Shown: positions 645 to 56,600 of the stretch, piece by piece | Layout: each line of letters opens with the position of its first letter | How positions within the stretch are numbered: position 1 is the first letter of the stretch | Source: OCS116 cluster bacterium AG-435-F03 | GTDB lineage: Bacteria; Pseudomonadota; Alphaproteobacteria; MED-G09 | Reading direction: 5' to 3' | NCBI GenBank assembly: GCA_003212795.1 | Contig: QCOV01000004.1 | Location: 11,762-75,761 of the forward strand | DNA length: 64,000 nucleotides | The notes under the pieces: model-generated | What the model was told of the DNA's origin: nothing | Databases searched by the model: none | The model's input: only the letters and a program-made list of their open reading frames with translations | Made by a program: the position numbers and the translations under genes

Positions 645-1733
645 ATGGTTAGGTTATTACTTTTATTATCAATTCTATTGTTTTCAATCAATATATCGGC
701 AATGTCGACTGCTATTGGACATGGCCCAATAGGCTTAATGGCTGATCATTTCCATAAAAAAGGAGAGTGGATGATATCTCTTAGGGTATCGAATATGGAA
801 ATGAAAAAAAATACTTTGGATGGCAAAAATATTTCAGATATTGAAGTTTTAAATCAGCCTAATCCTTCTTTCAAAATGTCTTCTATGAACGACATGCCTA
901 TGATGGAAATGTCATCAATGAAAATGCCTAAAAATCTAAGTGTAATTCCAAGAAAAATGACTATGAGAATGATTATGCTTGGGGCGATGTATGCGCCATC
1001 TGACAAAATAACTCTAATGGGCATGGCAATGTTCAATGACAAGGAAATGGAATTGGATACATATAGAGTAATGATGAATAGAAACTATTTAGGATCATTC
1101 GAAACCTCATCATCAGATTTATCAAAAATATCATTATCAGCATTATTTAATCTTCATGAAAATGAAAGCTCAAGATGGCATTTAATAGGTGGATTAGAGA
1201 AAAGCATTGGTGAAAATACAAAAAAAGGAATGGTTTTAACGCCAATGAACACAAATACCTCAATTACTTTGCCATACGGTATGCAGCCAAGTGATAAAGC
1301 TTTAAGATTATTAACTGGAGTTACAAATGTTACTAAAATAAATAATTTTGTTTTAGGTAACCAAATTTTATTTAGAAAAAGCATTGAAGAAGAAGACTGG
1401 AATTTTGGCGATGAATTTGAATATAACCTTTGGTTTCAAGGTTCATTTAATGACAATATTTCATATTCATTAAGGTTAAATTATTTAGATACTGATTCAA
1501 TAAGCGGTAAAAATGAAAATATAATGGCCCCTGTTCAAACAGCAAATCCAAGAAATTATGGTGGTGAAATCTTAAACATCGGAATAGGTTTTAATTTCAT
1601 AACAAATTTTTTACCTGGAAAACACTCTGATAGGTTAGCAATCGAGTATATTATACCCATTGACCAAGATAAAAGTGGTTTACAAATGAAGAATGAAGCT
1701 AAATTTATAATAGGTTTTCAAAAATCGTTATAA
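645..1733 (+). CDS. Secreted Met-rich protein, possible outer-membrane beta-barrel (copper-handling candidate)
   Basis: N-terminal signal peptide (MVRLLLLLSILLFSINISA) with an RBS 'AGGGAGAA' upstream. A Met-rich stretch 'MSSMNDMPMMEMSSMKMPKN...MTMRMIMLGAMY' resembles MxM/MxxM Cu(I) motifs. The C-terminal region alternates hydrophobic and polar residues. Confidence 0.4.
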   Translation: MVRLLLLLSILLFSINISAMSTAIGHGPIGLMADHFHKKGEWMISLRVSNMEMKKNTLDGKNISDIEVLNQPNPSFKMSSMNDMPMMEMSSMKMPKNLSVIPRKMTMRMIMLGAMYAPSDKITLMGMAMFNDKEMELDTYRVMMNRNYLGSFETSSSDLSKISLSALFNLHENESSRWHLIGGLEKSIGENTKKGMVLTPMNTNTSITLPYGMQPSDKALRLLTGVTNVTKINNFVLGNQILFRKSIEEEDWNFGDEFEYNLWFQGSFNDNISYSLRLNYLDTDSISGKNENIMAPVQTANPRNYGGEILNIGIGFNFITNFLPGKHSDRLAIEYIIPIDQDKSGLQMKNEAKFIIGFQKSL

Positions 1734-5250: not shown

Positions 5251-6294
5251 TTACTCCTTACCTATCAGTAATTTTTCACAACCCGTTTCTTTTAAAAAAT
5301 TAAAAACCTTTGTCTTGTCATCTTGGTCAAGCTCATTAAATTCATCTCTAATCCATTCTAAGCACTTAGCTTGATAGGGAAATGTTTTTTGCTCCCACAT
5401 TTGGTCATCAATTTTTGTTGACCAAGTTTCTTTGCCCTCTTTAAAAGCTATTGAATTTGCAATCATTGCAGGTACATATCCATGACTCAATTCCTCAAAA
5501 ATGGAGAAGGTTGTGTCTGGAAAATCTTTAATTGATAAAAGATGACTTGAGTCTACATTAAAACCTGATAAATCCTCCATAATATCAACCCAAGCAACAG
5601 ATCTAGGTGATAACTCTAGAGCTATTTCTCTTGATGTTGGATCAAAGCCAATGAGTTGGGTCATTTGTCCATAAAAAGCAAAATCTGATGACAAAGGCTT
5701 ATTGCCCAATAAAAAGGGGGTAGTTTCAAAATGATTTTCTAATAATGCTAGAAATCTTTTATAACTTCTTTCAATAATATCTGCAGTTTTTTCATTGGAA
5801 CCAACAACCCATAATCTACTTATCTGCAAATCAGTAATATATTTTTTAAAATCTTTATGTACTTTTTCTTCTAAGTTTACTGAGTGAAGAAGAGGCAATA
5901 TATTGCCAGCATTATCAATATCCCTTTGAAAATGCCACCGATAATGGAACATGTATTTAGTTACCCATTCATCGCCAAAATCTTCAAGAATTGAGTTTAA
6001 TAAGGCAAGAGATTTATTTTTCGGAATAATACCTCTGTCAGAATTACTAACCTCAAGTTTTCTTATTATGGGTGTTGTATCGCAAATAGCTGTAACTTCA
6101 CTGCCATTATGTAATAAAACTACTGGTAAAAGTGTGGGTTTGGGAGTTTCCAAGCCCATCGAATTTAATATTTCTTTGGCATTACCCCAAATTACGGAAT
6201 GTTGAATATTCCTATACCTTAAAGCTGATAGCATTTTCCTAGTGTAGGGTGATGCTGGTAAGCCAATTATCGTTATTTTGTTTTTATTTTCCAA
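5251..6294 (-). CDS. Glutathione S-transferase family protein (thioredoxin-like N-domain with a long C-terminal domain)
   Basis: N-terminus 'ITIIGLPASPYTRKMLSALRYRNIQH' is typical of the GST N-terminal fold; 347 aa. Confidence 0.45.
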   Translation of the reverse strand: MENKNKITIIGLPASPYTRKMLSALRYRNIQHSVIWGNAKEILNSMGLETPKPTLLPVVLLHNGSEVTAICDTTPIIRKLEVSNSDRGIIPKNKSLALLNSILEDFGDEWVTKYMFHYRWHFQRDIDNAGNILPLLHSVNLEEKVHKDFKKYITDLQISRLWVVGSNEKTADIIERSYKRFLALLENHFETTPFLLGNKPLSSDFAFYGQMTQLIGFDPTSREIALELSPRSVAWVDIMEDLSGFNVDSSHLLSIKDFPDTTFSIFEELSHGYVPAMIANSIAFKEGKETWSTKIDDQMWEQKTFPYQAKCLEWIRDEFNELDQDDKTKVFNFLKETGCEKLLIGKE

Positions 6295-15543: not shown

Positions 15544-17127
15544 ATGAGCAAGTTTCAAGTAATTTTCTTGACCATCTCACTGGTGATTTCTGGTTGTGCG
15601 GAAGAGGTAAATGAAAAAATATCTGGTGATAGTTTTCAACAAACCTATTGGGTTGAAGATTATACAAAAGATTTAAATTTTCCTTGGGCAATAACTTGGT
15701 TACCAAATGGAGATCTATTAGTTACTGAGAGATTAGGAAAAATTAAACTAATACGCAAAGGTATCGTTGTTAGTGAAATACAAGGTGTTCCGGAAGTAAT
15801 GGTATCTAGTCCATTTGATGGTTTATTGGATATCAAACTTGATCCTGATTTCGAAACACAGCCTTATATCTATCTCTCATATACCAAAGGTACAACAACT
15901 GAAAGGGTAGGAGTTGTTTATCGGGCAAAAATTAAAGACAACAAATTAGTTGAAGGGAAAGAAATATTTAATACATCTCCTCCAGCCCCAACTGGTGGGC
16001 CAAATATAACAAGAATTAATTTTCTTTCGGATAAATCCTTAGTTGCAGCAGTTGGGTCTAGCGGTCAGCATGCTTATGGCATGGTGCAAAGATTAGATGG
16101 AGATATAGGAAAGATAATAAGAATATATAGAGATGGGACCGTACCCAAAGATAACGCTCTTTCAGCTGATAACCCGGATGCTAAAGCGGAATTATGGGCA
16201 ACTGGTCTACGTTCTATTGGAGGTTTAACACTAGATAACAACGATCAACTTTGGGGTGTAGAAATGGGACCACAAGGTGGAGATGAATTAAACCTTATTG
16301 AAGGTGGAGGAAATTATGGTTTTCCTCTGATTAGTTGGGGTTTTGATTATTCTGGTCGAGCTTTATCAGAAAGACAAACAGCAGCTGGTTTTGTTGATCC
16401 AATAGTAACTTGGAGTCCTTCAATTTCACCTTATGGAATTACTTTTTATCAAGGCGAAGCCTTCCCTAACTGGAATGGTGATTTTTTTATAGGTGTTTTG
16501 GGTGATCAAACAATTATAAGAATGAGAATTCGTGATGGTAAGGTATTAGAGCAACAAGATTTACTTCCTTATCATAATGAGAGAATTCGTTCGGTAGAGA
16601 CTGGCCCAGATGGATTTATATATGCAGTTACAGATTCCTCTAATGGTAAAATTATTCGTTTAAGACCAGGTAAGCCATCTCAAAAAGACCTTGCTAATGT
16701 ATCTAAACCATTCCCTATGCCAAAAACTAACAGTATTGTTGAAAGATTAAGACTACATGGTGTAATGCAAGATGAGGAAACCATGCTAGCTATTCAAGCT
16801 GCGTATGATCAAGAAAGAGCTGAGTTTATTTACAATCAAAATTGTGTAAGCTGTCATAGCTTAAAAGCCAATGCTGAAAGTAATATTGGCCCTCATCTAG
16901 AGTCAATTGCTGGTCGAAGATCTGGGTCTTTACCTAATTATAATTATTCTTCTGCTATGAAAATGAATAATAAAACAAGTGTAATATGGGACTCACGAAC
17001 AATTGCTGCCTATATAACCAATCCTCAAGCAATTTTTCCTGGTACCAAAATGGCTTCTACCCCTCTTAAATTTGAGGATGCTGTTCAGGTTAGTAATTAT
17101 TTAACAAGATTAAAAAATGAAGAGTAA
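15544..17127 (+). CDS. PQQ-dependent sugar dehydrogenase (soluble glucose/sorbosone dehydrogenase-like beta-propeller) fused to a C-terminal cytochrome c domain; lipoprotein
   Basis: Lipobox 'VISGCA'. Propeller motifs ('ITWLPNGDLLVTER', 'GGNYGFPLISWG'). C-terminal heme-binding 'CVSCHS' (CxxCH). Confidence 0.6.
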   Translation: MSKFQVIFLTISLVISGCAEEVNEKISGDSFQQTYWVEDYTKDLNFPWAITWLPNGDLLVTERLGKIKLIRKGIVVSEIQGVPEVMVSSPFDGLLDIKLDPDFETQPYIYLSYTKGTTTERVGVVYRAKIKDNKLVEGKEIFNTSPPAPTGGPNITRINFLSDKSLVAAVGSSGQHAYGMVQRLDGDIGKIIRIYRDGTVPKDNALSADNPDAKAELWATGLRSIGGLTLDNNDQLWGVEMGPQGGDELNLIEGGGNYGFPLISWGFDYSGRALSERQTAAGFVDPIVTWSPSISPYGITFYQGEAFPNWNGDFFIGVLGDQTIIRMRIRDGKVLEQQDLLPYHNERIRSVETGPDGFIYAVTDSSNGKIIRLRPGKPSQKDLANVSKPFPMPKTNSIVERLRLHGVMQDEETMLAIQAAYDQERAEFIYNQNCVSCHSLKANAESNIGPHLESIAGRRSGSLPNYNYSSAMKMNNKTSVIWDSRTIAAYITNPQAIFPGTKMASTPLKFEDAVQVSNYLTRLKNEE

Positions 17128-21010: not shown

Positions 21011-21050
21011 CAAAAAAATAATGCCCAGAGTTTTGCAACTCTGAGCATTA
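21011..21050 (-). terminator. Rho-independent terminator downstream of the TonB-dependent receptor
   Basis: On the minus strand, 'TAATGCTCAGAGTTGCAAAACTCTGGGCATTA' forms an 11-bp stem (1 mismatch) with a 4-nt loop, followed by 'TTTTTTT'. Confidence 0.55.
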
Positions 21051-21072
21051 CCTCAATAAATTTTAATATTAG

Positions 21073-23436
21073 TTAAAATTTATAATTTAATTTAAGACCA
21101 TAATTTCTTCCTGGTAAAGGAACCTCATTTTTAACAAATGAAGCGTGATTTCTGGCCACTTCGTCAAGAAGATTCTTACCAAATAATGAGAAACTTATTT
21201 CATTTTGATTATTTAGAACAAAAGTCTTTTTTAAAGAGAAATCAAGCATTTCATAGGCTTCGGTTTCAGTTTCACCTTCACCAATATCATTTTGCTCTTC
21301 AACATCTTTATAAGTCAATCTTGCTAAAAGATTATCCTCTGAATAAGAAACAGTTATAATATTTCTTGCAGGTACAATTCTTGGGATATTCATACCATTC
21401 TTAAATTCACCTGTAACTGAGTCTCTGCCGAGTGATAAAGTAAGATTACCTCTATCAAAAGTAAAAATCTGACTTATTTCAAACTCATAACCTTCAAGTT
21501 CAGCATCTTTTTGTAGGAAGTTTGCTAAAATAAGACCACCATGGTCATCATGATCACCATGCTCTTCATGCTCTTCATGCTCTTCTTCCGTTTCATCTTG
21601 TAGATAGATGTAGTTATCAATGTCATTTTTGAAAATATTACCTCTAAAAGAGAAATTATTATTTTTATAAAATATATTCAAATCAATGTTGTTAGCACTC
21701 TCAGATTCAAGTTCTGTATTGCCAACTTCAAAGCGGCCAGTAACTAAATGAGCTCCATTCATATATAGCTCTACTGGTGATGGTGCTCTTTCAACTCTTG
21801 CTAGGCCTAGACTAACTGTAAAGTTATCATTAACTTCTCTCGAAAAATTAACAGCAAAACTTGTTTCGCTATAATCTTTATTAAAGTAGTCAATTTCCTC
21901 TTCATGTTCGTCTTCATCATGATGTTCGTCTTCATCGTGATGTTCGTCTTCATCATGATGTTCGTCTTCATCATGATGCTCTTCTTCATGATGAGCTAAT
22001 GAACCTTTACGAGAAATATCATCATACCTAATACCGAAATCAATATCTAATAATCCGAATTCTTTAGACAAATAATAACCAATGGATAATTCTTCATTAT
22101 CTGTTGGCCTCATAAAAGCTTCAGCACCAACTATAGAAATTTCTTCTTCTACATAATTGATAGATAATTTTTGCTTAACAACATCATTTGTTAAATCAAA
22201 AACAAAACCTAGTTCCTTGGATTTATTTTCAAAATTTGTTGGACCTTCAGCATGGCCATGTTCATCATGTTCATCTTCATCATGATGCTCTTCTTCATCG
22301 TGATGCTCTTCTTCATCGTGATGCTCTTCTTCAGCATGTTGCTCAGTATGAAGATAGTCTGAAGATCTAAAGAAATAATTAATTTTTTTCAGCCAAGAAC
22401 TATTAACTACATAAGAACCTTCAACATCAAAAATATCAGATTCTGTATTGGAAAAGATTCTTTCACCTTCATGTTCATCATGACCTTCATGTTCGTCTTC
22501 ATCATGATGCTCTTCTTCATCGTGATGCTCATCTTCATCATGATGCTCTTCTTTACCATGCATTCCATGATCTTCATGACCATCACCATGGAATGGAACA
22601 CCAAAAAGACTTTCAGAGTTCTTATAAGAAATACCGAAATATCCCCATTCACCTGTTTTTGAAATACCAAATCTTTGTGATGTTGACTCAAAGTCAGAGT
22701 TTTCTAAGTAACCAAGATTTTCTTCTTCGTGGTGCTCATCTTCATCGTGATGCTCATCTTCATCGTGATGCTCATCTTCATCGTGATGCTCATCCTCGGT
22801 ATGAATTATTGCACCATTTGGAATATCATAATTATCAAACTGAGAATCTTTATAAGCCAAACTTACATTGAAACCACCAATGTTATTTTGATAAGAAAAA
22901 CTTCCACTTTCTCCGTCGTTAACAGATTGGGTTTCTAAAGCAATATTAAATTTGGGTTCTTTAAAATCTTCTCTAGCAATTGTATTATCAATGATATTTA
23001 CTATGCCTCCAACAGTCCCACTAGAATATAGAAGTGATGATGGTCCTCTAACTATTTCTATTTGTTGAATATCATTTAAATCAACCTCATTCATATGATC
23101 GTCACCAATAGTAGAAACATCTCTCAGAGTTTTACCATTATTCATAATTCTAACTCTATTACCTGATAAACCACGAATGATAGGATGACCAACAGCTGCG
23201 CCAAAATCTGAAGATTGAATTCCAAGAAGATTATCAAGTGACTCACCTAAGCTAACTGTGGTGTCAAAAGTTGCATCATCTCCCCCAATTACATGAATTG
23301 GATCGTCTAGGTCTGATAGGTTTGTATCAATGTAAGATGATGTAACTATAATTTCATCTATCTCATTCGAATATATTTTTTCGTTGTGTATTATTAAAGT
23401 ACCCACAAACAAAAGTACTAAAAGTAAATTTTTCAA
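21073..23436 (-). CDS. TonB-dependent outer-membrane receptor with five His/Asp/Glu-rich (HHDEDE)n inserts
   Basis: TTG start with RBS 'AAAGGAGAT'. Signal peptide. TonB box 'DEIIVTSSY'. Plug and barrel organisation. C-terminal '...LKLNYKF' ending in Phe. The five His-rich inserts are listed as repeats below. Confidence 0.8.
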   Translation of the reverse strand: MKNLLLVLLFVGTLIIHNEKIYSNEIDEIIVTSSYIDTNLSDLDDPIHVIGGDDATFDTTVSLGESLDNLLGIQSSDFGAAVGHPIIRGLSGNRVRIMNNGKTLRDVSTIGDDHMNEVDLNDIQQIEIVRGPSSLLYSSGTVGGIVNIIDNTIAREDFKEPKFNIALETQSVNDGESGSFSYQNNIGGFNVSLAYKDSQFDNYDIPNGAIIHTEDEHHDEDEHHDEDEHHDEDEHHEEENLGYLENSDFESTSQRFGISKTGEWGYFGISYKNSESLFGVPFHGDGHEDHGMHGKEEHHDEDEHHDEEEHHDEDEHEGHDEHEGERIFSNTESDIFDVEGSYVVNSSWLKKINYFFRSSDYLHTEQHAEEEHHDEEEHHDEEEHHDEDEHDEHGHAEGPTNFENKSKELGFVFDLTNDVVKQKLSINYVEEEISIVGAEAFMRPTDNEELSIGYYLSKEFGLLDIDFGIRYDDISRKGSLAHHEEEHHDEDEHHDEDEHHDEDEHHDEDEHEEEIDYFNKDYSETSFAVNFSREVNDNFTVSLGLARVERAPSPVELYMNGAHLVTGRFEVGNTELESESANNIDLNIFYKNNNFSFRGNIFKNDIDNYIYLQDETEEEHEEHEEHGDHDDHGGLILANFLQKDAELEGYEFEISQIFTFDRGNLTLSLGRDSVTGEFKNGMNIPRIVPARNIITVSYSEDNLLARLTYKDVEEQNDIGEGETETEAYEMLDFSLKKTFVLNNQNEISFSLFGKNLLDEVARNHASFVKNEVPLPGRNYGLKLNYKF
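21538..21591 (-). repeat. Repeat tract 5 encoding 'TEEEHEEHEEHGDHDDHGG'
   Basis: Plus strand 'ctcttcatg' 9-nt unit repeated three times. Confidence 0.7.
21898..21996 (-). repeat. Repeat tract 4 encoding 'AHHEEEHHDEDEHHDEDEHHDEDEHHDEDEHEEE'
   Basis: Plus strand 'gttcgtcttcatcatgat' repeated four times, near-perfect. Confidence 0.85.
22249..22341 (-). repeat. Repeat tract 3 encoding 'HAEEEHHDEEEHHDEEEHHDEDEHDEHGHAEG'
   Basis: Plus strand 'gatgctcttcttcatcgt' repeated three times. Confidence 0.8.
22462..22587 (-). repeat. Repeat tract 2 encoding 'HGDGHEDHGMHGKEEHHDEDEHHDEEEHHDEDEHEGHDEHEGE'
   Basis: Imperfect tandem 18-nt units (catcatgatg/ctcttcttcatcgtgatg). Confidence 0.75.
22723..22803 (-). 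repeat. In-frame tandem 18-nt repeat tract 1 encoding 'HTEDEHHDEDEHHDEDEHHDEDEHHEEE'
   Basis: Plus strand shows 'gatgctcatcttcatcgt' repeated three times. Confidence 0.8.
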
Positions 23437-23473
23437 TTTTATCTCCTTTTTAAATTTACATAAGAAATGAAAT

Positions 23474-23758
23474 TTAAATTTGAGGAGGTCCTCTGGAGTA
23501 AAATTTAGAAATATTGTTGTCTAAAAATTGATTATCTACTTTCTGAATAAAATAAAAAGTAGTATGGAATTGATCCCCAAAAGTTGCTATTTGATTATCA
23601 AACTCAGGGGCAACATTAACACAAAAATCACAATCTATTTCTACAGACATATGATCATGATGATCATGATGTTCGTGCAATATCTCTTCGGCTGAAACCG
23701 AAGTAAAAAATAACAAAGCTATAAAGAAAGCCAGTGTTTTATTAGATAAATTGTGCAT
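23474..23758 (-). CDS. Small secreted His-rich protein (candidate periplasmic metal-binding partner of the receptor)
   Basis: Signal peptide 'MHNLSNKTLAFFIALLFFTSVSA', then 'EEILHEHHDHHDHMSVEIDCDFC'. The stop lies 37 nt upstream of the receptor start on the same strand. Confidence 0.5.
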   Translation of the reverse strand: MHNLSNKTLAFFIALLFFTSVSAEEILHEHHDHHDHMSVEIDCDFCVNVAPEFDNQIATFGDQFHTTFYFIQKVDNQFLDNNISKFYSRGPPQI

Positions 23759-23795
23759 AGCGAGTTAAATATTAAAGATATCGCATAAAGTCAAA

Positions 23796-24407
23796 CTATA
23801 TAAGCAATTCCTCTACTTGCCATAATGTGTCTTTTCCAAAGAATATTTGATCGCCGACAAAAAAAGTTGGTATACCAAAAACCCCTCTTTCAACAGCTGA
23901 TTCAGTATTAGATATTAGTTTTGCTTTAACATCTGGATCCTGCATTTGACTCATTAATTTATCCGCATCTAATCCTGATTCAAGAAATGCTTCTTTGATG
24001 ACTTCTGGATCATCCATTTTCTTGGGTTGCTCCCACATATGAACTAATACTTTATCTATATAATCTTCAAGATAGCCATCCATTTCAGCAGCAATTGCAC
24101 CTCTTATAATTTGTAAACTTATTACCGGAAAGTGCGGATTCATTTGAAAAGATTGTAAACCATGTCTTTCAATAAATCTCGTTATTTCAAGTGATTGGTA
24201 TTCTAATTTACCTTTTACCTCAGCAAATTGAACCATTGGTGGGTTGTTATTAGTAGCCTTAAATATACCTCCCAAGAGAACAGGAATATAATTAACTTTA
24301 GCACCCGTTTTTTCAGAAATTGATTTAAGCACTTTATGACTTAAATATGCATTTGGACTAGCAAAATCAAAATAAAAATCTACTTCTTTGGTCATCATCT
24401 TCTCCAA
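23796..24407 (-). CDS. DsbA-like thioredoxin-fold protein / 2-hydroxychromene-2-carboxylate isomerase family (kappa-class GST-like)
   Basis: N-terminal 'VDFYFDFASPNAYL' is characteristic of the HCCA isomerase/DsbA-like family; 203 aa. Confidence 0.55.
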   Translation of the reverse strand: MEKMMTKEVDFYFDFASPNAYLSHKVLKSISEKTGAKVNYIPVLLGGIFKATNNNPPMVQFAEVKGKLEYQSLEITRFIERHGLQSFQMNPHFPVISLQIIRGAIAAEMDGYLEDYIDKVLVHMWEQPKKMDDPEVIKEAFLESGLDADKLMSQMQDPDVKAKLISNTESAVERGVFGIPTFFVGDQIFFGKDTLWQVEELLI

Positions 24408-47034: not shown

Positions 47035-48450
47035 TTAATTGAAATATATACTATCGTCAGCTAGCTCAGCTTCTGCTGCTTCTGCTGCAAGTCTATCGGC
47101 TTCTCTTCTAGCCTGTTTTGATTCTATAACCTTAACCCATCTTCTAGCATCGGCTTCCATATCCTCATAACCAGTAGACCTTTTGAAAGCAAATAGTGCA
47201 GAATTTTCATATTTAATGCCTTTTTTATTTCTTGTAATACCAAGAAGAAGCCAAGCCCTTCCAGGATTTTCAAGATCACCTTTTTTAATAGCATATTTAA
47301 TATATTCCTCAGCTTCTTTCCAATTTTCCTCTTGCATAAAAGTTTGACCTAATCTTAAAAATAGTTCTCCATCTTCAGACATTTCAGCGGCCTTCTTCAA
47401 AGGAGGAATGGCTTTTTTCCATTCTCTTGCTGATAACCATGCATTAGCTAACTGTTCCCAATTTTTTTCTTCATCTTCAATTCTTCCGCTTTCTAATTCT
47501 TCTTCAAGAATTAGAGCGGCCTTATATGGTACTTCATAAAATAAGTATAATTGAGCAATCCTTAGTAATTCATCATGCTTTTCAAGCATGTCTTTTGAAA
47601 ACATGATCTGTTGAATATGAAAAGAATCTTCTTCTCTTTGTAATTCGGCATAAAGCGCAGCTAATTGTCTATAGTAATTCTTTTTGTCAGGAAACCTGTA
47701 TACCATAGCTTCAAGAATTGGAACAGATTCTTCATACCTGTCGTCAAATAATAAGATTGATAAGTATATTTGATACCAATTTTCTCTAGGCTCCGCAGCA
47801 GAAAATACCGCTTTTTCAGCATGTGGTTCTGCTTTCCTATAGTATTGTTTTTCTTCGGGGGAATCACTTTCAGTTTCCGAAGCAAAATAAAGATAGATTT
47901 GCGCTAATAAAGCATGTGCAGATGGTCCGGGAGGAAAGCCCATTTCCTCAGCGTCTTTAAACCATCTTAATAATTGATCGCGTCCCTCATCCCATCTATC
48001 TGTTGCGAGATAAAGTTGAGCAATCTGAAACTGTAAATCAAGTTGGTCTTGAGGTTGAAGAGCGTTTAAAGAGTAAACACGCTCAAGATAATCTAAAGAT
48101 TTTTCATATTGTTCTTTTTCGGCAAATACATAAGCCTGGAGTCTAATAATTTGAGCTTGTTCAAAAGGTCTTAAATCATCTCTTCTCAAAAGATTGCTTA
48201 AAATATCAAAAGCTCTATCAGGTAGATCTTCGCCTAATGCTTCCTGTGCCTTAATAAATTCTGCACCAACCTTCTTACTCATTGTTTGTGTTCTTTTTGC
48301 TTTAGGAGGTTTTCTTCTTTCTTTCTTTTTCTGAGCGTAGACTGTATCAGAAAATAATCCAGAAATTGTAATTGTTGCTGGCAAAGCCAATGAGAATATT
48401 ACAAAAACAAATATAAAATGTTTAATATAAATTTTTAAATTATCTAGCAT
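47035..48450 (-). CDS. TPR-repeat protein of the TonB2-type complex (TtpD-like)
   Basis: TM anchor then many TPR units; lies downstream of and overlaps tonB by 11 nt. Confidence 0.5.
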   Translation of the reverse strand: MLDNLKIYIKHFIFVFVIFSLALPATITISGLFSDTVYAQKKKERRKPPKAKRTQTMSKKVGAEFIKAQEALGEDLPDRAFDILSNLLRRDDLRPFEQAQIIRLQAYVFAEKEQYEKSLDYLERVYSLNALQPQDQLDLQFQIAQLYLATDRWDEGRDQLLRWFKDAEEMGFPPGPSAHALLAQIYLYFASETESDSPEEKQYYRKAEPHAEKAVFSAAEPRENWYQIYLSILLFDDRYEESVPILEAMVYRFPDKKNYYRQLAALYAELQREEDSFHIQQIMFSKDMLEKHDELLRIAQLYLFYEVPYKAALILEEELESGRIEDEEKNWEQLANAWLSAREWKKAIPPLKKAAEMSEDGELFLRLGQTFMQEENWKEAEEYIKYAIKKGDLENPGRAWLLLGITRNKKGIKYENSALFAFKRSTGYEDMEADARRWVKVIESKQARREADRLAAEAAEAELADDSIYFN

Positions 48451-49120
48451 CTTCTAACTCATAAGTAATTAAGTGTTGTACTCCGGGTCTGGGTACAGCC
48501 TTTCCATCTAAAATTCTTGGTTTATATTTCCATTTAACGATAGTTCTCAAAGCAGAACGATTAAAAATACCTGGGGGCTCTGCATCAACAACTATAGGGT
48601 TTGTTACAGCGCCACTAGGAGTAATTGTAAATTCTACTAAGACCCAACCTTCAATTCCTCTTTGTGTTGCTCTTCTTGGGTATTGAGGCGGAACTTTAAC
48701 AATAGGCAACACATCTGCGTCTGTTGAAGCCGCAAAAGAACCAAATGCAGGACCACCAAATTCTGGTGTTGCGACACTTTCAGCTGACATTTCAGGTCTT
48801 GGGGTTTCTGGAATATCCATATCTGGAGGATCAGGCTCTTGTTCTTGCTCAGGTCTATTTGGTTTTTTCTTAGCTGTTTGAGTTTCAGTATCCTGAAGCT
48901 GTCTTAAAAAACTTATATTGATATTTACACCTTCATCACCAATATCATACTCATTGCTTGTAACTAAGGCCTGCATAACCAAAAATAAAAAGACAGTTAC
49001 TATTGCAGCTAGTGGAATAGCGGTAACTCTACTGTCTAACTCTTTCAATGAATATCCTGCGATCTCGATATCTTGAGCTTTATTAATATAAAATTTTATT
49101 TTATTTATAAGTTCTAACAA
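48440..49120 (-). CDS. tonB: Energy transducer TonB
   Basis: N-terminal TM, Pro/Glu-rich spacer 'EPDPPDMDIPETPRPE', C-terminal TonB domain. Confidence 0.65.
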   Translation of the reverse strand: MLELINKIKFYINKAQDIEIAGYSLKELDSRVTAIPLAAIVTVFLFLVMQALVTSNEYDIGDEGVNINISFLRQLQDTETQTAKKKPNRPEQEQEPDPPDMDIPETPRPEMSAESVATPEFGGPAFGSFAASTDADVLPIVKVPPQYPRRATQRGIEGWVLVEFTITPSGAVTNPIVVDAEPPGIFNRSALRTIVKWKYKPRILDGKAVPRPGVQHLITYELEDAR

Positions 49121-49131
49121 GTTATCACCAA

Positions 49132-49533
49132 TTAATTTTTCTCAGATGCAGCAATTGAATATTGCTCTACTCCAGCTAATCTTACTGCATCAATAACTTC
49201 AACCATCAAACCAACTTCTGATCTTTCGTCAGCTTGAATAACAGCTCCACCTTGAGGATTTTCTGCATGGAGTTTTTCAACATTAGCCTGTACAGCATCC
49301 ATATCAACTAACCTTCTATTAATCCAAACTTCATTTTTGTCACTAATAGCTATTAATATACCTACTCTATTTTGCTGTTGGGCGGTTTCAGAGTCAGGAC
49401 GAGTAACATCAATGCCGGACTCCTTAACAAATGTAGCAGTAACAATGAAGAAAATAAGCATTATGAAAACAATATCCAATAAAGGCGTTATATTGATTTC
49501 ACTTTCTTCATCTAATCTCTGTCTTCTTCTCAT
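49132..49533 (-). CDS. exbD: Biopolymer transport protein ExbD/TolR
   Basis: 133 aa; 'INITPLLDIVFIMLIFFIV' TM and periplasmic domain. Confidence 0.7.
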   Translation of the reverse strand: MRRRQRLDEESEINITPLLDIVFIMLIFFIVTATFVKESGIDVTRPDSETAQQQNRVGILIAISDKNEVWINRRLVDMDAVQANVEKLHAENPQGGAVIQADERSEVGLMVEVIDAVRLAGVEQYSIAASEKN

Positions 49534-49556
49534 TTTTTTCTCCTAATATTCAAATG

Positions 49557-50102
49557 TTAAGATAAAGATAAATTATCTTCAACATAGGAAATCTCTCTTT
49601 TTGATCTAGACTCTAACTGTGCAATAAAAAATAAACCAGATAAAGACGCTACCATACCTGACATAGTGGGAAGAGTTGCTTTTGATATTCCAGCCGCCAT
49701 TGCTCGAGCATTTGAGGAACCTGTGATAGCCATAACATCAAAAACTTCTACCATACCAGTTACTGTTCCAAGTAATCCAAATAAAGGTGCAGCAGCAACA
49801 AGTGTTTTAATATAAAGCAAGCCCCTTTCAGAAGATTGCTTTACTTCACTAATAAGCTTTTCTCTAATTCTTCTGGCATACCAAGAACTATGGTCTGATC
49901 TTTCATTCCAATGATTTATTGCATTTTTTGATAGACCTTTTTGTGAGGTTGCAAAATGCCAATATCTTTCAATTATTAAAGCCCACATAATAAAAGTTGC
50001 AAGCATTATAGCTAAAAGAACATCGCCACCAAGCTCAATAAAATCACGTAATGAGCTGAAAGCTAAATCAGGTCTAACAAGTTTAATTAAAAAGTCACCC
50101 AT
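49557..50102 (-). CDS. exbB: MotA/TolQ/ExbB proton channel (short ExbB)
   Basis: 181 aa; C-terminal 'PLFGLLGTVTGMVEVF' signature. Confidence 0.7.
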   Translation of the reverse strand: MGDFLIKLVRPDLAFSSLRDFIELGGDVLLAIMLATFIMWALIIERYWHFATSQKGLSKNAINHWNERSDHSSWYARRIREKLISEVKQSSERGLLYIKTLVAAAPLFGLLGTVTGMVEVFDVMAITGSSNARAMAAGISKATLPTMSGMVASLSGLFFIAQLESRSKREISYVEDNLSLS

Positions 50103-50129
50103 TTATATAACCTTTAAATATCCTCAATT

Positions 50130-51521
50130 TTATCTAGATTCTGCTTTCGCAGCAATTAAACCTGCGCTTTGCTCTTCTAAAACTTGCTGAATAGATCTGC
50201 TTCTTTGTTGTGCAACAGAATGTAATAAAACAAGTGGAATAGCAGCAGTTAATCCTAAGACAGTTGTAACCAATGCCTGAGAAATACCACCAGCCATTAA
50301 TTTTGGATCACCAGTACCGAATAATGTAATTGCCTGGAATGTAACAATCATACCAGTAACAGTTCCGAGCAAGCCTAATAATGGAGCTACAGATGATAAT
50401 AATTTAATGAAATTAATACCTCTTTCTAAGGCAGGTAACTCCTTTAAAATTGCATCATCAAGTTTTAGTTCCAATGTTTCAACATCAGCACTTTGATTTG
50501 AATGATATGCTGAGAGAACTCTACCGAGTGGGTTATCATCATTTGGATTATCTACATCTTTTGATTGAGCGTTAACAGACCTAGAAACAATAGTTAATCT
50601 AAATATCCTCTCAGCTGAGAGAAGAAGCCCGATAATTAAAAGTCCAATAATAATATAACCAACCACTCCACCTTGACTAACTCTTTCTGATAGACCTGGA
50701 GTTTGAATTAATAATCCAAGAATTGCTCCTCTAGATGGGTCAATAGCACCTTTAACTATATCGCCTGTATCGCCATCAACAACATTATCTCCTAAGTCAA
50801 GAAATCTTGCCTGAGGTTGTCTACCTAGAACTCTATATCTTTCGTCATCAGGAAGATAACCTAAAAAATTACCTCTTCTATCAAATGCCGTCCAAGGCCC
50901 AACTCTAATAACATCCTCTTCAGAAAAACTACCATCTGTATCAACAATCGTACCTGTGAAACGCTTTACTTCACCTTGAGCTTTCATTTCCTCAAGAAGA
51001 TGGAACCACAATAATTCAAGCTCCTCATTAGATGGAAGTTTCTGTGATTTTGCCAAATTTGTTAATGTTTCATGTCTACCTGATAATTCACCGCTAATAA
51101 TGGATTCTTTAATTTGAGCACCCATTTCACTTGCAGTACCACGAACGACACCAAATAATTCACCAAAAGCGCCAAGTCTCTCTGCTTTAAGATCTTCTAA
51201 TTCGCTTAATTTAACATCATTTTCATCAAATTCTTTTTCTAAAACAACAGCTCTATCTTCTTCAACTTTTAGGTCGGCAAGAGTTTTATCAAGAATTGTT
51301 TGTTGTGTGTCTTGTTCAGCAACAAATTTAGCAATTCTTTGACGGTTTTCTTCAGTGTCATAAAGAGCTTCCTCTTGAACCTTAAGAATTAATTGTTCTA
51401 AAGATGTAACTTCAGCTGGAGTTTCATTTTCCTCTTTTTGAGCAAAAGAGCTAAGTGGGAAAGCAACAATTGATAAAAAAGAAACTAATATAATAATTTT
51501 ATTTTCTGTAAATTTTTTCAT
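50130..51521 (-). CDS. MotA/TolQ/ExbB family protein with long N-terminal periplasmic coiled-coil domain (TtpC-like)
   Basis: Signal peptide, about 250 aa coiled-coil, then 'APLLGLLGTVTGMIVTFQAI' channel signature. Confidence 0.65.
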   Translation of the reverse strand: MKKFTENKIIILVSFLSIVAFPLSSFAQKEENETPAEVTSLEQLILKVQEEALYDTEENRQRIAKFVAEQDTQQTILDKTLADLKVEEDRAVVLEKEFDENDVKLSELEDLKAERLGAFGELFGVVRGTASEMGAQIKESIISGELSGRHETLTNLAKSQKLPSNEELELLWFHLLEEMKAQGEVKRFTGTIVDTDGSFSEEDVIRVGPWTAFDRRGNFLGYLPDDERYRVLGRQPQARFLDLGDNVVDGDTGDIVKGAIDPSRGAILGLLIQTPGLSERVSQGGVVGYIIIGLLIIGLLLSAERIFRLTIVSRSVNAQSKDVDNPNDDNPLGRVLSAYHSNQSADVETLELKLDDAILKELPALERGINFIKLLSSVAPLLGLLGTVTGMIVTFQAITLFGTGDPKLMAGGISQALVTTVLGLTAAIPLVLLHSVAQQRSRSIQQVLEEQSAGLIAAKAESR

Positions 51522-51535
51522 TTTTTTCCCCTAAT

Positions 51536-52321
51536 TTATTCCGAAGTGATCTCAAGCGGAACGACCATTAAATCTGGCGCTGCTTGTTCATTAGCAATTC
51601 TAATTCCAACCTGGATTGGCAGACGATAAGATCCGCCCAATCTAGTCCACTCTCCATCTGCTTTATTCCAAACAGCTGCATCGTCTCCATCTAGAGTTTG
51701 GTAAATGTAAGAATTTCTTCCGATTCTTAAGAAATTAACTGTTCTGTCATCATCTGGGCTAACTTTACCGGTGTAAGCCTCAATTGTGCGACCATACTCA
51801 TTTTCTATTTCATAAGCTTCAGAAATTTTTCTATATTTTTCAGCTGGTGAAGCATCCGGGTTATTCATAAGAGTTCTTAAACCTTGAACTCTCTGTCTTC
51901 TTTCATCTATTAAAAATGGGACATCGAGTTCAACAAAAGTATCTAACGCATCTATCATTTTAAACATCAAAGGCATAACTGATCGTGTCAAACTACTTAT
52001 ACGAGCAACATCTTGCTCGATTCGAACCATTTTTCTCTCTTGCCTATCAATAAGAATTTCTAACTGGTCATTATATGCTGTTAGATCAATTAATTGCTGA
52101 TAGTTCTGTCTAAACTCTTGAACGATAACATTTGTTGAGTCATCTAAAGCATCAATTTGTCCTTGAGCTTCCTTTCCAGAATTATTTGATTGAGCAAAAA
52201 GTGATCTTACTGGATCTAATTGTCTAGCAGGATCAATGTTTTTTTGAGAATATGCATCATTTGATAATAAAAATATCAATGAAAATAATGCAATTTTTTT
52301 AATATTTATGTTTAAAGACAT
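51536..52321 (-). CDS. DUF3450 family periplasmic protein (TtpB-like), first gene of the TonB2-type operon
   Basis: Signal peptide, coiled-coil; conserved position upstream of the TtpC-like gene. Confidence 0.5.
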   Translation of the reverse strand: MSLNINIKKIALFSLIFLLSNDAYSQKNIDPARQLDPVRSLFAQSNNSGKEAQGQIDALDDSTNVIVQEFRQNYQQLIDLTAYNDQLEILIDRQERKMVRIEQDVARISSLTRSVMPLMFKMIDALDTFVELDVPFLIDERRQRVQGLRTLMNNPDASPAEKYRKISEAYEIENEYGRTIEAYTGKVSPDDDRTVNFLRIGRNSYIYQTLDGDDAAVWNKADGEWTRLGGSYRLPIQVGIRIANEQAAPDLMVVPLEITSE

Positions 52322-52582: not shown

Positions 52583-53662
52583 ATGAGTAAAACAGTAAAA
52601 ACATCACTAATAACTCTTTCTGTCCTTATTTTTTGGATGTTCACTGGTATATTTTCAAATGATGATGAAGGATCAAATTCAGTAATTGAAATTGAAGGTA
52701 ATACTGCAATAAATAACTCTACCCTAGTGAGCGCTAGAATTTTTAATGCAAAACCTAAAATATCTTTTGTTGTTTTAAGGGGCAGAACTGAGTCTGATAG
52801 AAATGTTTACATTGCAGCTGAGACAACCGGTATTGTAGAAAATATTTATTTTGAAAAGGGAGATAAGGTAAAAAAAGGTGAAATTATATGCAAACAATCA
52901 ATAGATGCTCGAAAAGCCAAACTTGATGAAGCTAATGCATTAATGAAACAAAAAGAGTTAGAATGGCAAGCCTCTAAGACATTAGTAGAGAAAGGATATA
53001 GATCACAGACACAATTAGCTGCTTCTTCAGCAGCATATGATGCTTCAAAAGCATTAGTTAAACAAATGGAGCAGGAGCTCGATAACATAAATATTAGAGC
53101 ACCATTTGATGGTATATTTAATGAAAAACTAGCGGAAATAGGTGATTTTTTATCAATAGGAAAGCCTTGCGGAAAAGTAGTTGACTACGATCCAATTAAA
53201 ATAACTGCTCAAGTGTCAGAAAAAGAAATTCTTAGTGTAAAAAATGGTCTTCCAGGTAGAGCTAATTTATCTACAGGAGAAAAAGTTGAAGGTTTAGTAA
53301 CATATGTTTCAAATACTGCTGATCCAGCAACCAGAACTTTTCGAATTGAAATGGAAGTTGAAAATAATAACCTTAGTTATAAAGATGGTTTAACAGCCGA
53401 AATTTTTATACCTATAAAAGAAATTAACGGCCATTTGATTCCTCCTTCCTCTTTAACATTAAATGAAGTAGGTGAAGTGGGTGTTCGCCATATTGTTGAT
53501 AAAAATAAAGCTAAATTTTCAAAAGTAGAAATCTTAGGCGATGAAAATGAACTTGTTTGGATTTCAGGGTTACCTGAAAAAGTTACAATTATTACTGTTG
53601 GTCATGAATTTGTATCAAACGGAGATTCGGTGAATTATAGATTACAGGATGAAAACAGTTGA
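52583..53662 (+). CDS. RND efflux periplasmic adaptor (membrane fusion protein, HlyD family)
   Basis: N-terminal TM, coiled-coil hairpin and beta-barrel domains; overlaps the RND permease start by 4 nt. Confidence 0.7.
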   Translation: MSKTVKTSLITLSVLIFWMFTGIFSNDDEGSNSVIEIEGNTAINNSTLVSARIFNAKPKISFVVLRGRTESDRNVYIAAETTGIVENIYFEKGDKVKKGEIICKQSIDARKAKLDEANALMKQKELEWQASKTLVEKGYRSQTQLAASSAAYDASKALVKQMEQELDNINIRAPFDGIFNEKLAEIGDFLSIGKPCGKVVDYDPIKITAQVSEKEILSVKNGLPGRANLSTGEKVEGLVTYVSNTADPATRTFRIEMEVENNNLSYKDGLTAEIFIPIKEINGHLIPPSSLTLNEVGEVGVRHIVDKNKAKFSKVEILGDENELVWISGLPEKVTIITVGHEFVSNGDSVNYRLQDENS

Positions 53663-56600
53663 TCAACATTATTGATTATATAATGGCTGCAAGAAAAACT
53701 ACTGTTTTTCTTATGCTTATTCTTATAACCATTGGAACCTTTACTTTCATATCAATACCAAAGGATGCAGAACCAGATATAGATGTTCCTTTTGTTTACG
53801 TTTCAGTGGTTTTACCTGGAATATCACCTGAAGATTCAGAAAGATTAATAGTTAGACCATTAGAAACAGAATTAAAAAATATTGAAGGATTAAAAGAAAT
53901 ATCAGGAATGGCATCCCAAAATTATGGATCTGTTTTATTAGAATTTGATATTAGCTTTGATAAGGATAAGGTTTTAAGTGATGTTAGGGAAAAAGTTGAT
54001 CTAGCTAAATCGGAATTTCCTCAAGATGCTGAGGAACCACAAGTCTTAGAATTTAATATGGCTACAATGCCTGTAATGACCGTTTCGTTATCAGGCAAAG
54101 TACCAAATAGGACTTTAATTTATCATGCAAAAGAACTTCAGAATCAAATAGAACGAGTACCCGGTATATTAGAAGCACCAATAGTGGGAGATAAAGAGGA
54201 ATTACTAGAAATACTTGTTAGTCCTTCTAAACTTGAGAATTATGATGTTTCACTTGCTGATTTGATAAGATCAATAACTGGTAACAATAGAATAGTTGCA
54301 GCTGGTACAATCAATAAAGGACAGGGAAAATTTTCAGTAAAAGTACCAGCAGTTTATGAAAGCGCACAAGACGTATACAACATAGGAATTATAACACGAG
54401 GCGAAGGTACTGTTAAACTTGGCGATATAGCTGAAATACGAAGTACATTTAAGGAAAATGAGACTTATGCAAGAATTGATGGCAAACCAGCTATCCACCT
54501 AGATGTAAAAAAAAGAATTGGTGAAAATGTAATCCTAATAAATAAAGAAATTAGAAAAGTTGGTAATAAATATAAGCAAGATAATCTTTCTAACAACATA
54601 TACATAGACTTTTCTGCAGATACATCTGATTACATTAATGAAATGCTTGGATCTTTATCTAATGCAATTTCAAATGCAATTATAAGCGTTATGCTTCTGG
54701 TTATAGCTTCACTAGGAATAAGATCGGCTTTAATGGTTGGGATATCCATTCCTACTTCTTTTCTTATGGCGATTACGCTTCTTGCTGTTTCTGGTGGATA
54801 TATAAACATGATGGTTATGTTTGGATTATTAGTTTCTGTAGGTCTACTTGTTGATGGATCAATAGTAATGGTTGAATATGCTGATAGGAAAATGGCAGAA
54901 GGTCTAGATAGGAAGGCAGCTTATACCCAGGCATATAAAAGAATGATATGGCCGATTATATCTTCTACTGCAACAACACTCGCAGCATTTCTACCATTAG
55001 TTTTATGGCCTGGTATACCAGGGCAATTCATGAAATGGATGCCGTTCATGGTAAGTCTAGTTTTAGTGTCTTCTTTACTTTCTGCATTAATTTTCATACC
55101 AGTAATGGGTTCTTTATTTGGTAGAACAGAAAATAAAAATAAAATTAAACTAGATGAAGAGTTCAGTTTTAATAATCTTAAGGGAATAACTCTTACATAC
55201 GCAAAATTATTAGAGAAATGTCTAAAAAGACCTATGGCAGTTCTATTGTCTGCAGTTCTTGTGGTCTTTACATTGATAATACTCTACTCAAATTTCAATG
55301 CTGGTTCACAGTATTCAGTTGATACTGACTCTAATCAAATGCTGGTTCACGTTAACGCAAGAGGAAATTTATCCCCTGAAGAAAAATTAGATCTTTCGAT
55401 AGATGTTGAAGAAATAGTGATGGGTACTGATGGCGTTGATAGAGTTCTTACATCGATAGGCTCTGGAGATGGATTTAATGTTTACTCTGCAATGGGTGGT
55501 TCAGGAAATAGAACAGATCAAATTGCCTCATTGATGGTTGAATTAAAGCCAGTTCATGAAAGAAGATCAGCTGATAAAATAAAAGATGATATTTTAAGTA
55601 AATCTAAACTTTTACCTGGGATTATTGTTGAGGCTTATAAAATTGAAAATAAACCTGATACAGGAAAAGATATTCAAATGGAAATAACCTCAAATAATAA
55701 AAATAATCTTGAAAAAGTAACAAAACTCATCACAGCAAAATTAGAAAATATGGATGGTATCCAGGAAGTTGATAACACCATGCCTTTACCCGGTATTGAG
55801 TGGATAATTAATGTTGATAGAGAGCTTGCTGGACGTTTTGGAGCGGATATATCAACTATTGGAGCAATTGTTCAATTGGTAACAAATGGAATTCTGGTTG
55901 ACAAGTATAGGCCAGATAATTCTGACGATGAGGTTGATATTCGAGTTCGATTTCCTGAAGAATACAGGATGATAGAGGAATTTGACCAATTAAGAATTCC
56001 TACAAGTGAAGGTGCTGTCCCATTATCAAATTTTGTAACAAGAACGCCAAATTCTAAGGTATCAACAATCGAAAGACTTGATGGTTTAAGAATTTTTAAA
56101 ATAAGAGCAAATACATCTATCGACCCTTCAACAGGTAAAAAGTATCTTGCAGTTGATAAAAGTAATGAATTAAAAAAATGGATTTCTCAAGAAAGCCTTC
56201 CAAAAAATGTATTTATCAAATTTGCTGGTTCAGATGAAGAAAGAGAGGAATCTGCTGCATTCCTGGGAAATGCTATGATAGGAGCCCTTTTTCTAATGTT
56301 CATAATTTTATTAACTCAATTTAATAGTTTTTATCAAGCTGCTATAACATTATCGACTGTAATATTATCTACAATTGGTGCTTTAACTGGTCTTATGATT
56401 GTTGGTCAATATTTTTCAGTAATTATGACTGGCTTAGGAATTGTTTCATTGGCAGGAATAATTGTTAATAACTCAATAGTCTTAATTGATACATATAATA
56501 GACTCAGAGTTCAGCATGAAGACCCAATTGAGACAATTTTGCATTCTTCTGTTCAACGATTTAGACCTATTGTCTTAACGACTGCTACCACAATGATTGC

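Follow-up and report, generated by a model that had tools for sequence, protein, structure and literature searches.

What is the function of a short open reading frame (ORF) that directly precedes a receptor gene whose product is interrupted five times by runs of His, Asp and Glu? This question is raised by a locus of the marine alphaproteobacterium OCS116 cluster bacterium AG-435-F03. We analysed a stretch of 64,000 nucleotides (nt) of its contig QCOV01000004.1, hereafter called the window, in which a 94-residue ORF is followed by the gene of a 787-residue TonB-dependent receptor. An initial annotation of this DNA had taken the receptor for an extreme case of divalent-metal capture and the small ORF for its secreted His-rich partner. 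Our results suggest a different arrangement: the two genes probably form a trace-metal uptake module of this PS1/OCS116-clade bacterium, in which a ZnuD-type receptor is preceded by a regulatory leader similar to CruR and CutF. Receptors of this kind and leaders of this kind are each known; their combination is what is new here. We found no description in the literature of a ZnuD-like receptor combined with a CruR-like leader, or of this marine subfamily, and our literature searches on SAR86, SAR92 and PS1 brought up no work on such receptors.

A ZnuD-like receptor with five His/Asp/Glu-rich loops

The receptor shows the complete architecture of its class. Pfam recovers a Plug domain (PF07715, residues 41-145, E = 6.8e-17) and a TonB_dep_Rec barrel (PF00593, residues 401-756, E = 3.8e-23), and by inspection there is a TonB-box-like DEIIVTSS at residues 27-34 and a C-terminus ending in NYKF, i.e. 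with a terminal Phe, all of which agrees with the initial annotation. The clean terminator described at the end of the module is also there, as a hairpin 3' of the receptor gene of -23.6 kcal/mol (z = -7.3).

The protein contains 55 His in total. Five inserts of 18-35 residues had been announced. All five exist (coordinates in Table 1), and only the length of the fifth needs correction: its pure His/Asp/Glu run is 10 residues (617-626) and reaches 16 if one Gly is allowed. Four of the inserts are 18-nt tandem arrays encoding HHDEDE, in 3.2-5.1 copies with 89-96% matches, a regularity that shows them not to be the product of chance. In an AlphaFold model of the receptor with 22 barrel strands, the strands being at 70-90 in the predicted local distance difference test (pLDDT), each insert lies between an odd strand and the next even strand, regardless of the end from which one counts, and the periplasmic turns are all of 2-7 residues. 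The model thus places all five inserts in extracellular loops (L2, L3, L4, L6 and L8).

Tandem repeats of 18 nt are prone to misassembly, and one may ask if these low-complexity segments are assembly or sequencing artefacts. We give this explanation practically no weight. In hundreds of independent assemblies the segments are all in frame and sit at the same places in the loops; the carriers comprise single-cell genomes, complete chromosomes and an isolate, HTCC2207. Where single-cell genomes were assembled independently, the number of hexapeptide copies differs by steps of six residues, always in frame. For example, in close relatives L2 has 42, 48 or 54 residues, L3 has 32 or 44, and L6 has 25, 31 or 37. 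Length differences in whole hexapeptides are the outcome expected of repeat slippage, which argues against the artefact that had been feared from low-complexity reads.

We searched for relatives of the receptor by scanning one genome per species and found at least 527. The nearest (95-80% identity) come from marine alphaproteobacterial single-cell genomes of the OCS116/PS1 clade, and the guanine-cytosine (GC) content of the window, about 32%, is consistent with this placement. A second tier at 45-56% identity comprises SAR92/Porticoccaceae (among them the isolate HTCC2207 and also a complete chromosome), SAR86 and Woeseiaceae. Runs of His, Asp and Glu are found at the same five sites in all of the 120 best database homologs, and each of the five loops has at least three His in 85-99% of 78 genomic relatives; the number of His per protein ranges from 20 to 65. 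The receptor of the window is thus at the rich end of a large family and not singular, and the notion that five such cassettes in one protein are extreme does not hold.

Within known receptors, ZnuD of Neisseria meningitidis (4rdr/4rdt/4rvw; NF038289) is the closest relative by both sequence and fold, as had been anticipated from the zinc-type character of the loops. It is the best match in NCBIfam, the best sequence match in the PDB (4rdr, E = 4.7e-39 with the single sequence and 2.7e-58 with the family profile) and the best Foldseek match of the receptor model (E = 3.7e-32, template modelling score 0.66/0.73-0.84), the next being PhuR and OprC. The buried zinc site of ZnuD is formed by D99, H100, E340 and H499 (PMC4557270). 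Once a 14-residue numbering offset of the PDB chain was corrected, the alignment with 4rdr placed D99/H100 on D113/H114 of the receptor plug and H499 on H563 of a barrel loop; these three residues are invariant in an alignment of 37 sequences (A1). The likeness extends to the surface. H283...H287 of the receptor aligns with the ZnuD cluster 241-HSHEYDD (H283 = H241), and insert 2 comes next in that loop. In ZnuD this cluster sits in loop 3 and is surface-exposed in the crystal structures (PMC4557270), the loop being flexible, rich in His, Asp and Glu, and working as a metal 'fishing net'. Unlike ZnuD, the receptor has five such loops instead of one, built of slippage-prone HHDEDE repeats; it has a putative stalling leader ORF in front, and no Zur box was found; and its host is a free-living marine oligotroph and not a pathogen.

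The conserved residues could also be read in another way: the protein would import heme or another organic chelate clamped by the two conserved His, and the acidic loops would be incidental decoration. The heme families TIGR01785 and TIGR01786 are indeed the next-best NCBIfam matches, PhuR, ChuA, ShuA and HasR are among the fold matches, and ZnuD itself shares its His-His clamp geometry with HasR (PMC4557270). Yet the 110-117 bits of these matches are far under the family cut-offs of 317-324, and ZnuD is clearly closer by sequence and fold. Moreover, cation binding is indicated by five loops that consist of His, Asp and Glu alone and are conserved across four clades, and a leader with His and a Cys motif fits the sensing of a metal ion. 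We therefore regard import of an organic chelate as very unlikely.

Two types of copper receptor were also considered and rejected. The OprC/NosA type (TIGR01778) is not among the NCBIfam matches. Furthermore, the columns of A1 that are invariant after the start Met contain no Cys and a single Met (M559), so that the Cys-His-Met-Met site of OprC is absent. The entry 9rvq, a 732-residue 'TonB-dependent receptor' that is probably CrtA/BfrG, matches the receptor in the plug only (E = 3.5e-4). The copper transporter CrtA/BfrG was rejected given this plug-only match and because no PepSY_TM gene was recognised among the conserved neighbour clusters when these were read by eye.

A short upstream ORF that resembles arrest peptides

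The upstream ORF has the sequence that was initially given for it, including 'EEILHEHHDHHDHM...CDFC'. Its export signal, identified by inspection, has a Lys in the n-region and a hydrophobic core followed by VSA, and at the other extremity the protein ends in FYSRGPPQI. Judging from its sequence and the way this has evolved, the ORF most likely encodes a metal-sensing leader that stalls the ribosome, and not a secreted partner of the receptor.

To reach distant loci we used a profile built from the close homologs of the leader, and the upstream ORF was then picked by its C-terminus. A small ORF lies directly upstream of the receptor gene in 71 of 80 genome loci, in four clades, and most of the nine loci without it are cut at the end of a contig. 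The sequences of these leaders have diverged extensively (mean identity of 18% across the 71): only C43 and P92 are invariant, and H28, Ala/Gly90 and P91 are found in at least 90%. Among 72 leaders, the terminal motif is RAPP in 57, QAPP in nine, RGPP in five and RASP in one, and it is followed by 1-4 residues in 69. In 69 of the 72, the Arg stands at a distance of 40-43 residues from the Cys motif (42 in the window). The Cys motif is a CxxC in 53 and has a single Cys in the remaining 19; in Porticoccaceae, for example, the putative sensor is H-x-H-x2-H...C with one Cys (SCSVSV in the HTCC2207 type). Conservation of the His run is limited to the PS1 clade. A linker of fixed length and drifting sequence fits a spacer that spans the exit tunnel of the ribosome, and not a folded binding domain.

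These patterns bear on the initial proposal that the 94-residue product is a secreted or periplasmic His-rich metal-binding protein, i.e. a chaperone or metallophore-like partner of the receptor. In favour of such a protein, the mature part carries a His run and a CxxC behind an export signal, and the gene pair is strictly conserved; a dual role as sensor and binder is also possible. However, a binding protein is hard to reconcile with the retention of only the signal, one His, the Cys motif and the terminal R(A/G)PP around a linker of constant length, or with a His run restricted to the PS1 clade. In addition, the terminal RGPP is the tetrapeptide most strongly avoided in bacterial proteomes, arrest peptides excepted (PMC12992588), and of the two leaders characterised experimentally CutF is degraded on export (PMC9973294) and CruR is barely detectable (PMC9426467). 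The partner function is thus probably wrong, and we consider it improbable that the product acts outside the ribosome in this way.

The reading as a stalling leader is consistent with what is known of arrest peptides. Arrest at RGPP and RAPP has been validated experimentally (PMC12992588, PMC9426467), RGPP is the most potent arrest core known, and small exported ORFs ending in RAPP or RGPP are enriched upstream of TonB receptor genes (PMC12992588). In Bordetella pertussis, CruR (Bp2923) heads the cruR-bfrG-bp2921 operon: arrest at RAPP keeps the TonB transporter expressed, and copper sensed by the CXXC relieves the arrest, upon which Rho terminates transcription (PMC9426467). Like CruR, our leader is small, exported and placed first, ahead of a TonB receptor gene (BfrG/CrtA in B. 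pertussis). It differs in ending in RGPP instead of RAPP, in a spacing of 42 residues (40-43 in the family) instead of 45, and in the additional His run; the downstream receptor is ZnuD-like and not CrtA-like, and a PepSY_TM gene was not recognised here. CutF, the leader of cutFOG in Rhodobacter capsulatus, is likewise exported and has a Cys motif and a Pro-rich C-terminus. It acts through a stem-loop that shields the Shine-Dalgarno of the next gene and is opened by the paused ribosome (PMC9973294). The hairpin between leader and receptor gene in the window abuts the Shine-Dalgarno, ending 1 nt before it, but does not cover it. Besides, CutF switches on a detoxifying oxidase at high copper, the opposite sign to that expected for an uptake receptor. 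Finally, SecM, ApdA, ApdP and ApcA (RAGP, RAPP and RAPG cores; PMC12992588, PMC10987492) are also small exported proteins that regulate a downstream gene through a C-terminal core of the R-(A/G)-P-P type blocking peptidyl transfer. These proteins monitor export, the force of release coming from Sec or YidC, whereas here a putative metal-binding segment stands at the distance of the tunnel exit.

CruR belongs to DUF2946 (PF11162), which is characterised by a signal for export, a CXXC and, at the C-terminus, a RAPP at a fixed spacing of 45 residues (PMC9426467). Of all Pfam families, this is the one matched by the largest number of our leaders, albeit weakly, with 14 of 71 at E <= 1 and the best at 9.4e-4 (20.4 bits), all below the gathering threshold. 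A profile search of the whole library with a narrow alignment of leaders (A2) gave only 10 matches, the leader being too short and divergent for the size of the family to be gauged.

The leader ORF itself has no recognisable Shine-Dalgarno (..TTTAACTCGCTATG, window 23759-23795) and begins 37 nt past the stop of a DsbA-like gene (23796-24407), with a TTGACT at 23789-23794; it may be translated from a near-leaderless transcript or by read-through. Upstream of the leader, about 70 loci were scanned for boxes of Zur and Fur, with no convincing outcome except for a GTTATATTATAAC palindrome in one Woeseiaceae locus. The best matches to the Zur consensus were 17/23 and 15/19, none of them in the window. 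The GTTATATTATAAC of the Woeseiaceae locus (L071, around 5650-5680) fits the palindrome at the core of gammaproteobacterial Zur boxes, and it overlaps with the region of the leader start. It was not seen in the relatives L066, L070 and L080. In line with the initial annotation, neither a protein of the Fur/Zur family nor an ABC importer is among the 38 ORFs of the window that were scanned with Pfam, and none is evident by eye in the remaining ones.

A possible route from stalled ribosome to receptor gene, and the candidate metals

The region between the two genes folds more stably than expected. The spacer has 37 nt in the window, where the hairpin is weak, at -4.6 kcal/mol, yet much more stable than dinucleotide shuffles (z = -7.6); the leader stop codon is in its 5' arm. 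Short spacers (33-52 nt) are found in 53 relatives; their hairpins have a mean z of -3.2, and 92% of them pair the stop codon. These values come from folding each sequence separately, a test used in place of a consensus by RNAalifold. Another 17 loci, mainly HTCC2207-type Porticoccaceae, have spacers of 68-91 nt (they include L012, L015, L017, L018, L021-L024, L027, L029, L031, L035, L037, L038 and L043). There, a GC-rich hairpin (e.g. GTGCCGGTCATTCGGCGC) is followed by a U-run just before the Shine-Dalgarno, an arrangement reminiscent of a leader-coupled transcription attenuator. For 70 loci taken together, the Shine-Dalgarno has a probability of being unpaired of 0.14 in the full sequence; this becomes 0.42 if the footprint of the stalled ribosome is taken out, and 0.26 if that footprint is shuffled. 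The last 100 nt or so of the leader have 17-18% C and 8-9% G; a Rho-loading site is therefore also possible.

We propose the following sequence of events, in which the route from the stall to the receptor gene is what we infer from these features. The five disordered and strongly acidic His-rich loops would form a net of high capacity, catch a divalent metal ion that is free or weakly complexed, and pass it to a buried ZnuD-like site made of D113/H114 in the plug and H563 in the barrel loop, from which TonB would energise its passage. The ribosome translating the leader would arrest at the RGPP, with the CxxC 42 residues back and the His run newly outside the exit tunnel. With Pro91 in the P site, the leading edge of the ribosome would reach the stop codon of the leader. 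It would thereby cover both the hairpin with the stop codon and the 3' end of the leader, rich in C and poor in G, and in this way the receptor gene would stay transcribed and translatable. When the metal is sufficient, it would bind the nascent His/Cys segment, the arrest would be relieved, and the ribosome would terminate and leave. Receptor expression would then drop, either by Rho-dependent termination or by refolding of the RNA beside the Shine-Dalgarno. The sign of this response (metal turns the receptor off) is assumed from the logic of uptake systems and from CruR. The receptor gene starts with TTG in the window and in its eight closest PS1-clade relatives (L001-L008), and with ATG in more distant ones. 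The conservation of this weak start beside a strong Shine-Dalgarno may be relevant to the coupling with leader translation.

It is important to highlight several observations that weigh against the module as we describe it. On the side of the receptor, its 220 bits are far below the 950-bit equivalog cut-off of the ZnuD family (NF038289), its identity to ZnuD is only about 20%, and E340, the fourth zinc ligand, lies in an unaligned stretch and could not be mapped. The mean pLDDT of the model is low, at 59, as a consequence of poorly modelled inserts and plug. The leader of the window obtains 12.9 bits (E = 0.2) against DUF2946, whose gathering threshold is 23.7, despite having the CXXC, the R(A/G)PP-type end, the fixed spacing and the export signal. 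At the level of RNA, RNAalifold found no consensus structure in 36 aligned leader-receptor junctions, where the A/T-rich spacer aligns poorly. In the window, the accessibility of the Shine-Dalgarno shows no effect of the stalled ribosome (0.33 in the full sequence, 0.25 masked, 0.26 shuffled). Since sequestration is seen for the set of loci and not for the window, it is only one possible route of transmission. The alternative route has its own difficulty, because the A/U-rich spacer of 37 nt contrasts with the GC-rich one of 162 nt with a Rho site downstream of CruR, and the Rho mechanism of B. pertussis may not transfer. The loci are phylogenetically related, and hence statistics pooled over them overstate independence. 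Finally, the leaders that were characterised experimentally, CruR and CutF, sense copper and not zinc (PMC9426467, PMC9973294).

This last point raises the question of which metal is sensed and imported. We tentatively favour zinc, while stopping short of calling it probable, for four reasons. The receptor is ZnuD-like with a conserved site of N/O ligands; its loops are made of His, Asp and Glu; the putative sensor of the leader has His beside Cys, with a single Cys in the Porticoccaceae variant; and other members of DUF2946, such as CzcI, accompany Co/Zn/Cd systems (PMC9973294).

Copper is possible but less likely. The locus would then be a CruR-type acquisition module, with copper sensed by the CxxC of the leader and Cu(II), once caught by the His-rich loops, imported through the receptor, for example for heme-copper oxidases. 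Such a version accords with the response of the DUF2946 leaders studied so far, which respond to copper through Cys motifs (PMC9426467, PMC9973294), and with the frequent position of CruR homologs at the head of TonB-receptor operons. In addition, Cu(II) is bound well by His, the upstream region yielded no Zur box, and OprC is among the next-best fold matches. On the other hand, the receptor is not of the known copper types, given the plug-level match to 9rvq and the lack of an OprC-type site, and PepSY_TM was not recognised in the conserved neighbour clusters (representatives of 13 clusters inspected by eye and one scanned with Pfam). Leaders with one Cys and three His, as in Porticoccaceae, are less like a Cu(I) CxxC site, and the association of CzcI and other DUF2946 members with Co/Zn/Cd systems also speaks against copper. 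Another metal, including Co or Ni, is slightly less plausible still. A paper on nickel in cable bacteria was set aside, since it concerns RcnA and not a TonB receptor.

Neighbouring genes and significance of the module

Table 1. Position of the features discussed in the text. Coordinates refer to the window, except for the MerC-like genes, which are given per locus.
Feature	Position	Strand	Basis
Leader ORF, 94 residues, read as a CruR/CutF-like arrest peptide	23474..23758	-	ORF list; equivalent upstream ORF in 71/80 loci
Leader export signal, residues 1-23, MHNLSNKTLAFFIALLFFTSVSA	23690..23758	-	Inspection; conserved in alignment A2
Leader His run HEHHDHHDH, residues 28-36, putative part of the sensor	23651..23677	-	ORF list, A2
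Leader CxxC motif, C43-D-F-C46	23621..23632	-	C43 invariant in 71 relatives
Leader RGPP, putative arrest motif, residues 89-92, two codons ahead of the stop	23483..23494	-	Motif in relatives; validated arrest core
A/U-rich hairpin with leader stop codon	23449..23478	-	Ends 1 nt short of receptor Shine-Dalgarno
Receptor Shine-Dalgarno, AAGGAG	23443..23448	-	Read from sequence
Receptor start codon, TTG	23434-23436	-	7 nt past AAGGAG
ZnuD-like TonB-dependent receptor, 787 residues	21073..23436	-	ORF list, Pfam, NCBIfam, PDB, model, Foldseek
Receptor Plug domain, residues 41-145, including D113-H114	23002..23316	-	Pfam PF07715; 4rdr alignment
His/Asp/Glu insert 1, residues 214-239 (26), loop L2, strands 3-4	22720..22797	-	Run count, model, repeat analysis
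His/Asp/Glu insert 2, residues 296-317 (22), loop L3, strands 5-6	22486..22551	-	Counterpart of ZnuD His/Asp-rich loop 3
His/Asp/Glu insert 3, residues 369-393 (25), loop L4, strands 7-8	22258..22332	-	Run count, model, repeat analysis
His/Asp/Glu insert 4, residues 482-514 (33), loop L6, strands 11-12	21895..21993	-	Run count, model, repeat analysis
His/Asp/Glu(Gly) insert 5, residues 617-632, loop L8, strands 15-16	21541..21588	-	Run count, model, repeat analysis
Intrinsic terminator closing the module	21012..21054	-	Hairpin then T-run
MerC-like genes in other loci	L006:5281-5691, L007, L008:950-1360, L010:5277-5687; also L061, L066, L070, L071, L077, L079, L080

The conserved neighbours of the pair are mostly housekeeping genes (asmA, mutY, yggX, hisBH), and a single candidate partner recurs among them. 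This is a four-helix membrane protein of the MerC family (PF03203, E = 1e-23), which adjoins the leader-receptor pair in 13 of 80 loci; in four PS1-type genomes it immediately precedes the leader. Its C-terminus has the pattern C-x4-5-(D/N)C-x-CH, and it may be an inner-membrane metal importer working with the receptor. No MerC homolog was found in the window. The window does contain a complete TonB energising cluster (47035-52321, minus strand), with DUF3450, a MotA/ExbB protein of 463 residues, an ExbB of 181, ExbD, a TonB of 226 and a tetratricopeptide repeat protein, which could energise the receptor.

Other genes were noted in passing. Several SAR86 genomes (L062:4487-5560, L064:4626-5684, L077:4581-5645) have a zinc-type alcohol dehydrogenase (CGVCHSDVH) encoded right in front of the leader, an adjacency that may be a coincidence. 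In the window, the 362-residue product of 645-1733 (plus strand), which has a signal-like segment at its N-terminus and contains the motif GHGPIGLMADHFHKKGEWM, finds nothing in Pfam at E <= 0.01; it could be an envelope protein of a type not yet characterised. The gene at 15544-17127 (plus strand) encodes a glucose/sorbosone dehydrogenase (GSDH, E = 1.4e-97) that is lipoprotein-like and has a cytochrome c domain fused at its C-terminus. Beside the TonB cluster, at 52583-56838 (plus strand), a 359-residue protein, probably a membrane-fusion component, is followed by a 1059-residue transporter. We name this pair as similar to resistance-nodulation-division efflux systems from protein size and N-terminal sequence only.

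The acquisition of trace metals and its regulation are largely unknown in the abundant oligotrophic bacteria of the ocean, which have small genomes and few classical regulators. The module described here is present in four major ocean clades, and joins the capture of free metal ions at the outer membrane, in the style of ZnuD, with the sensing of metal by a nascent peptide, in the style of CruR. Should the leader respond to a metal that is not copper, the range of what arrest peptides are known to sense would be widened. One could go further and speculate that with this leader a nascent chain would be seen for the first time to sense a non-copper metal, most plausibly zinc, through a His/Cys site that leaves the ribosome tunnel just as RGPP is reached. 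In the streamlined genomes of PS1, SAR86, SAR92 and Woeseiaceae, such a cis-acting peptide switch would replace a Zur-type transcription factor in the control of metal uptake at the outer membrane, and slippage of the HHDEDE repeats would allow populations to tune the capture capacity of the loops; we hold this extended scenario to be possible but doubtful. The module is short and self-contained and occurs in a cultured strain, HTCC2207, and its transcripts may serve as an in situ marker of metal stress.

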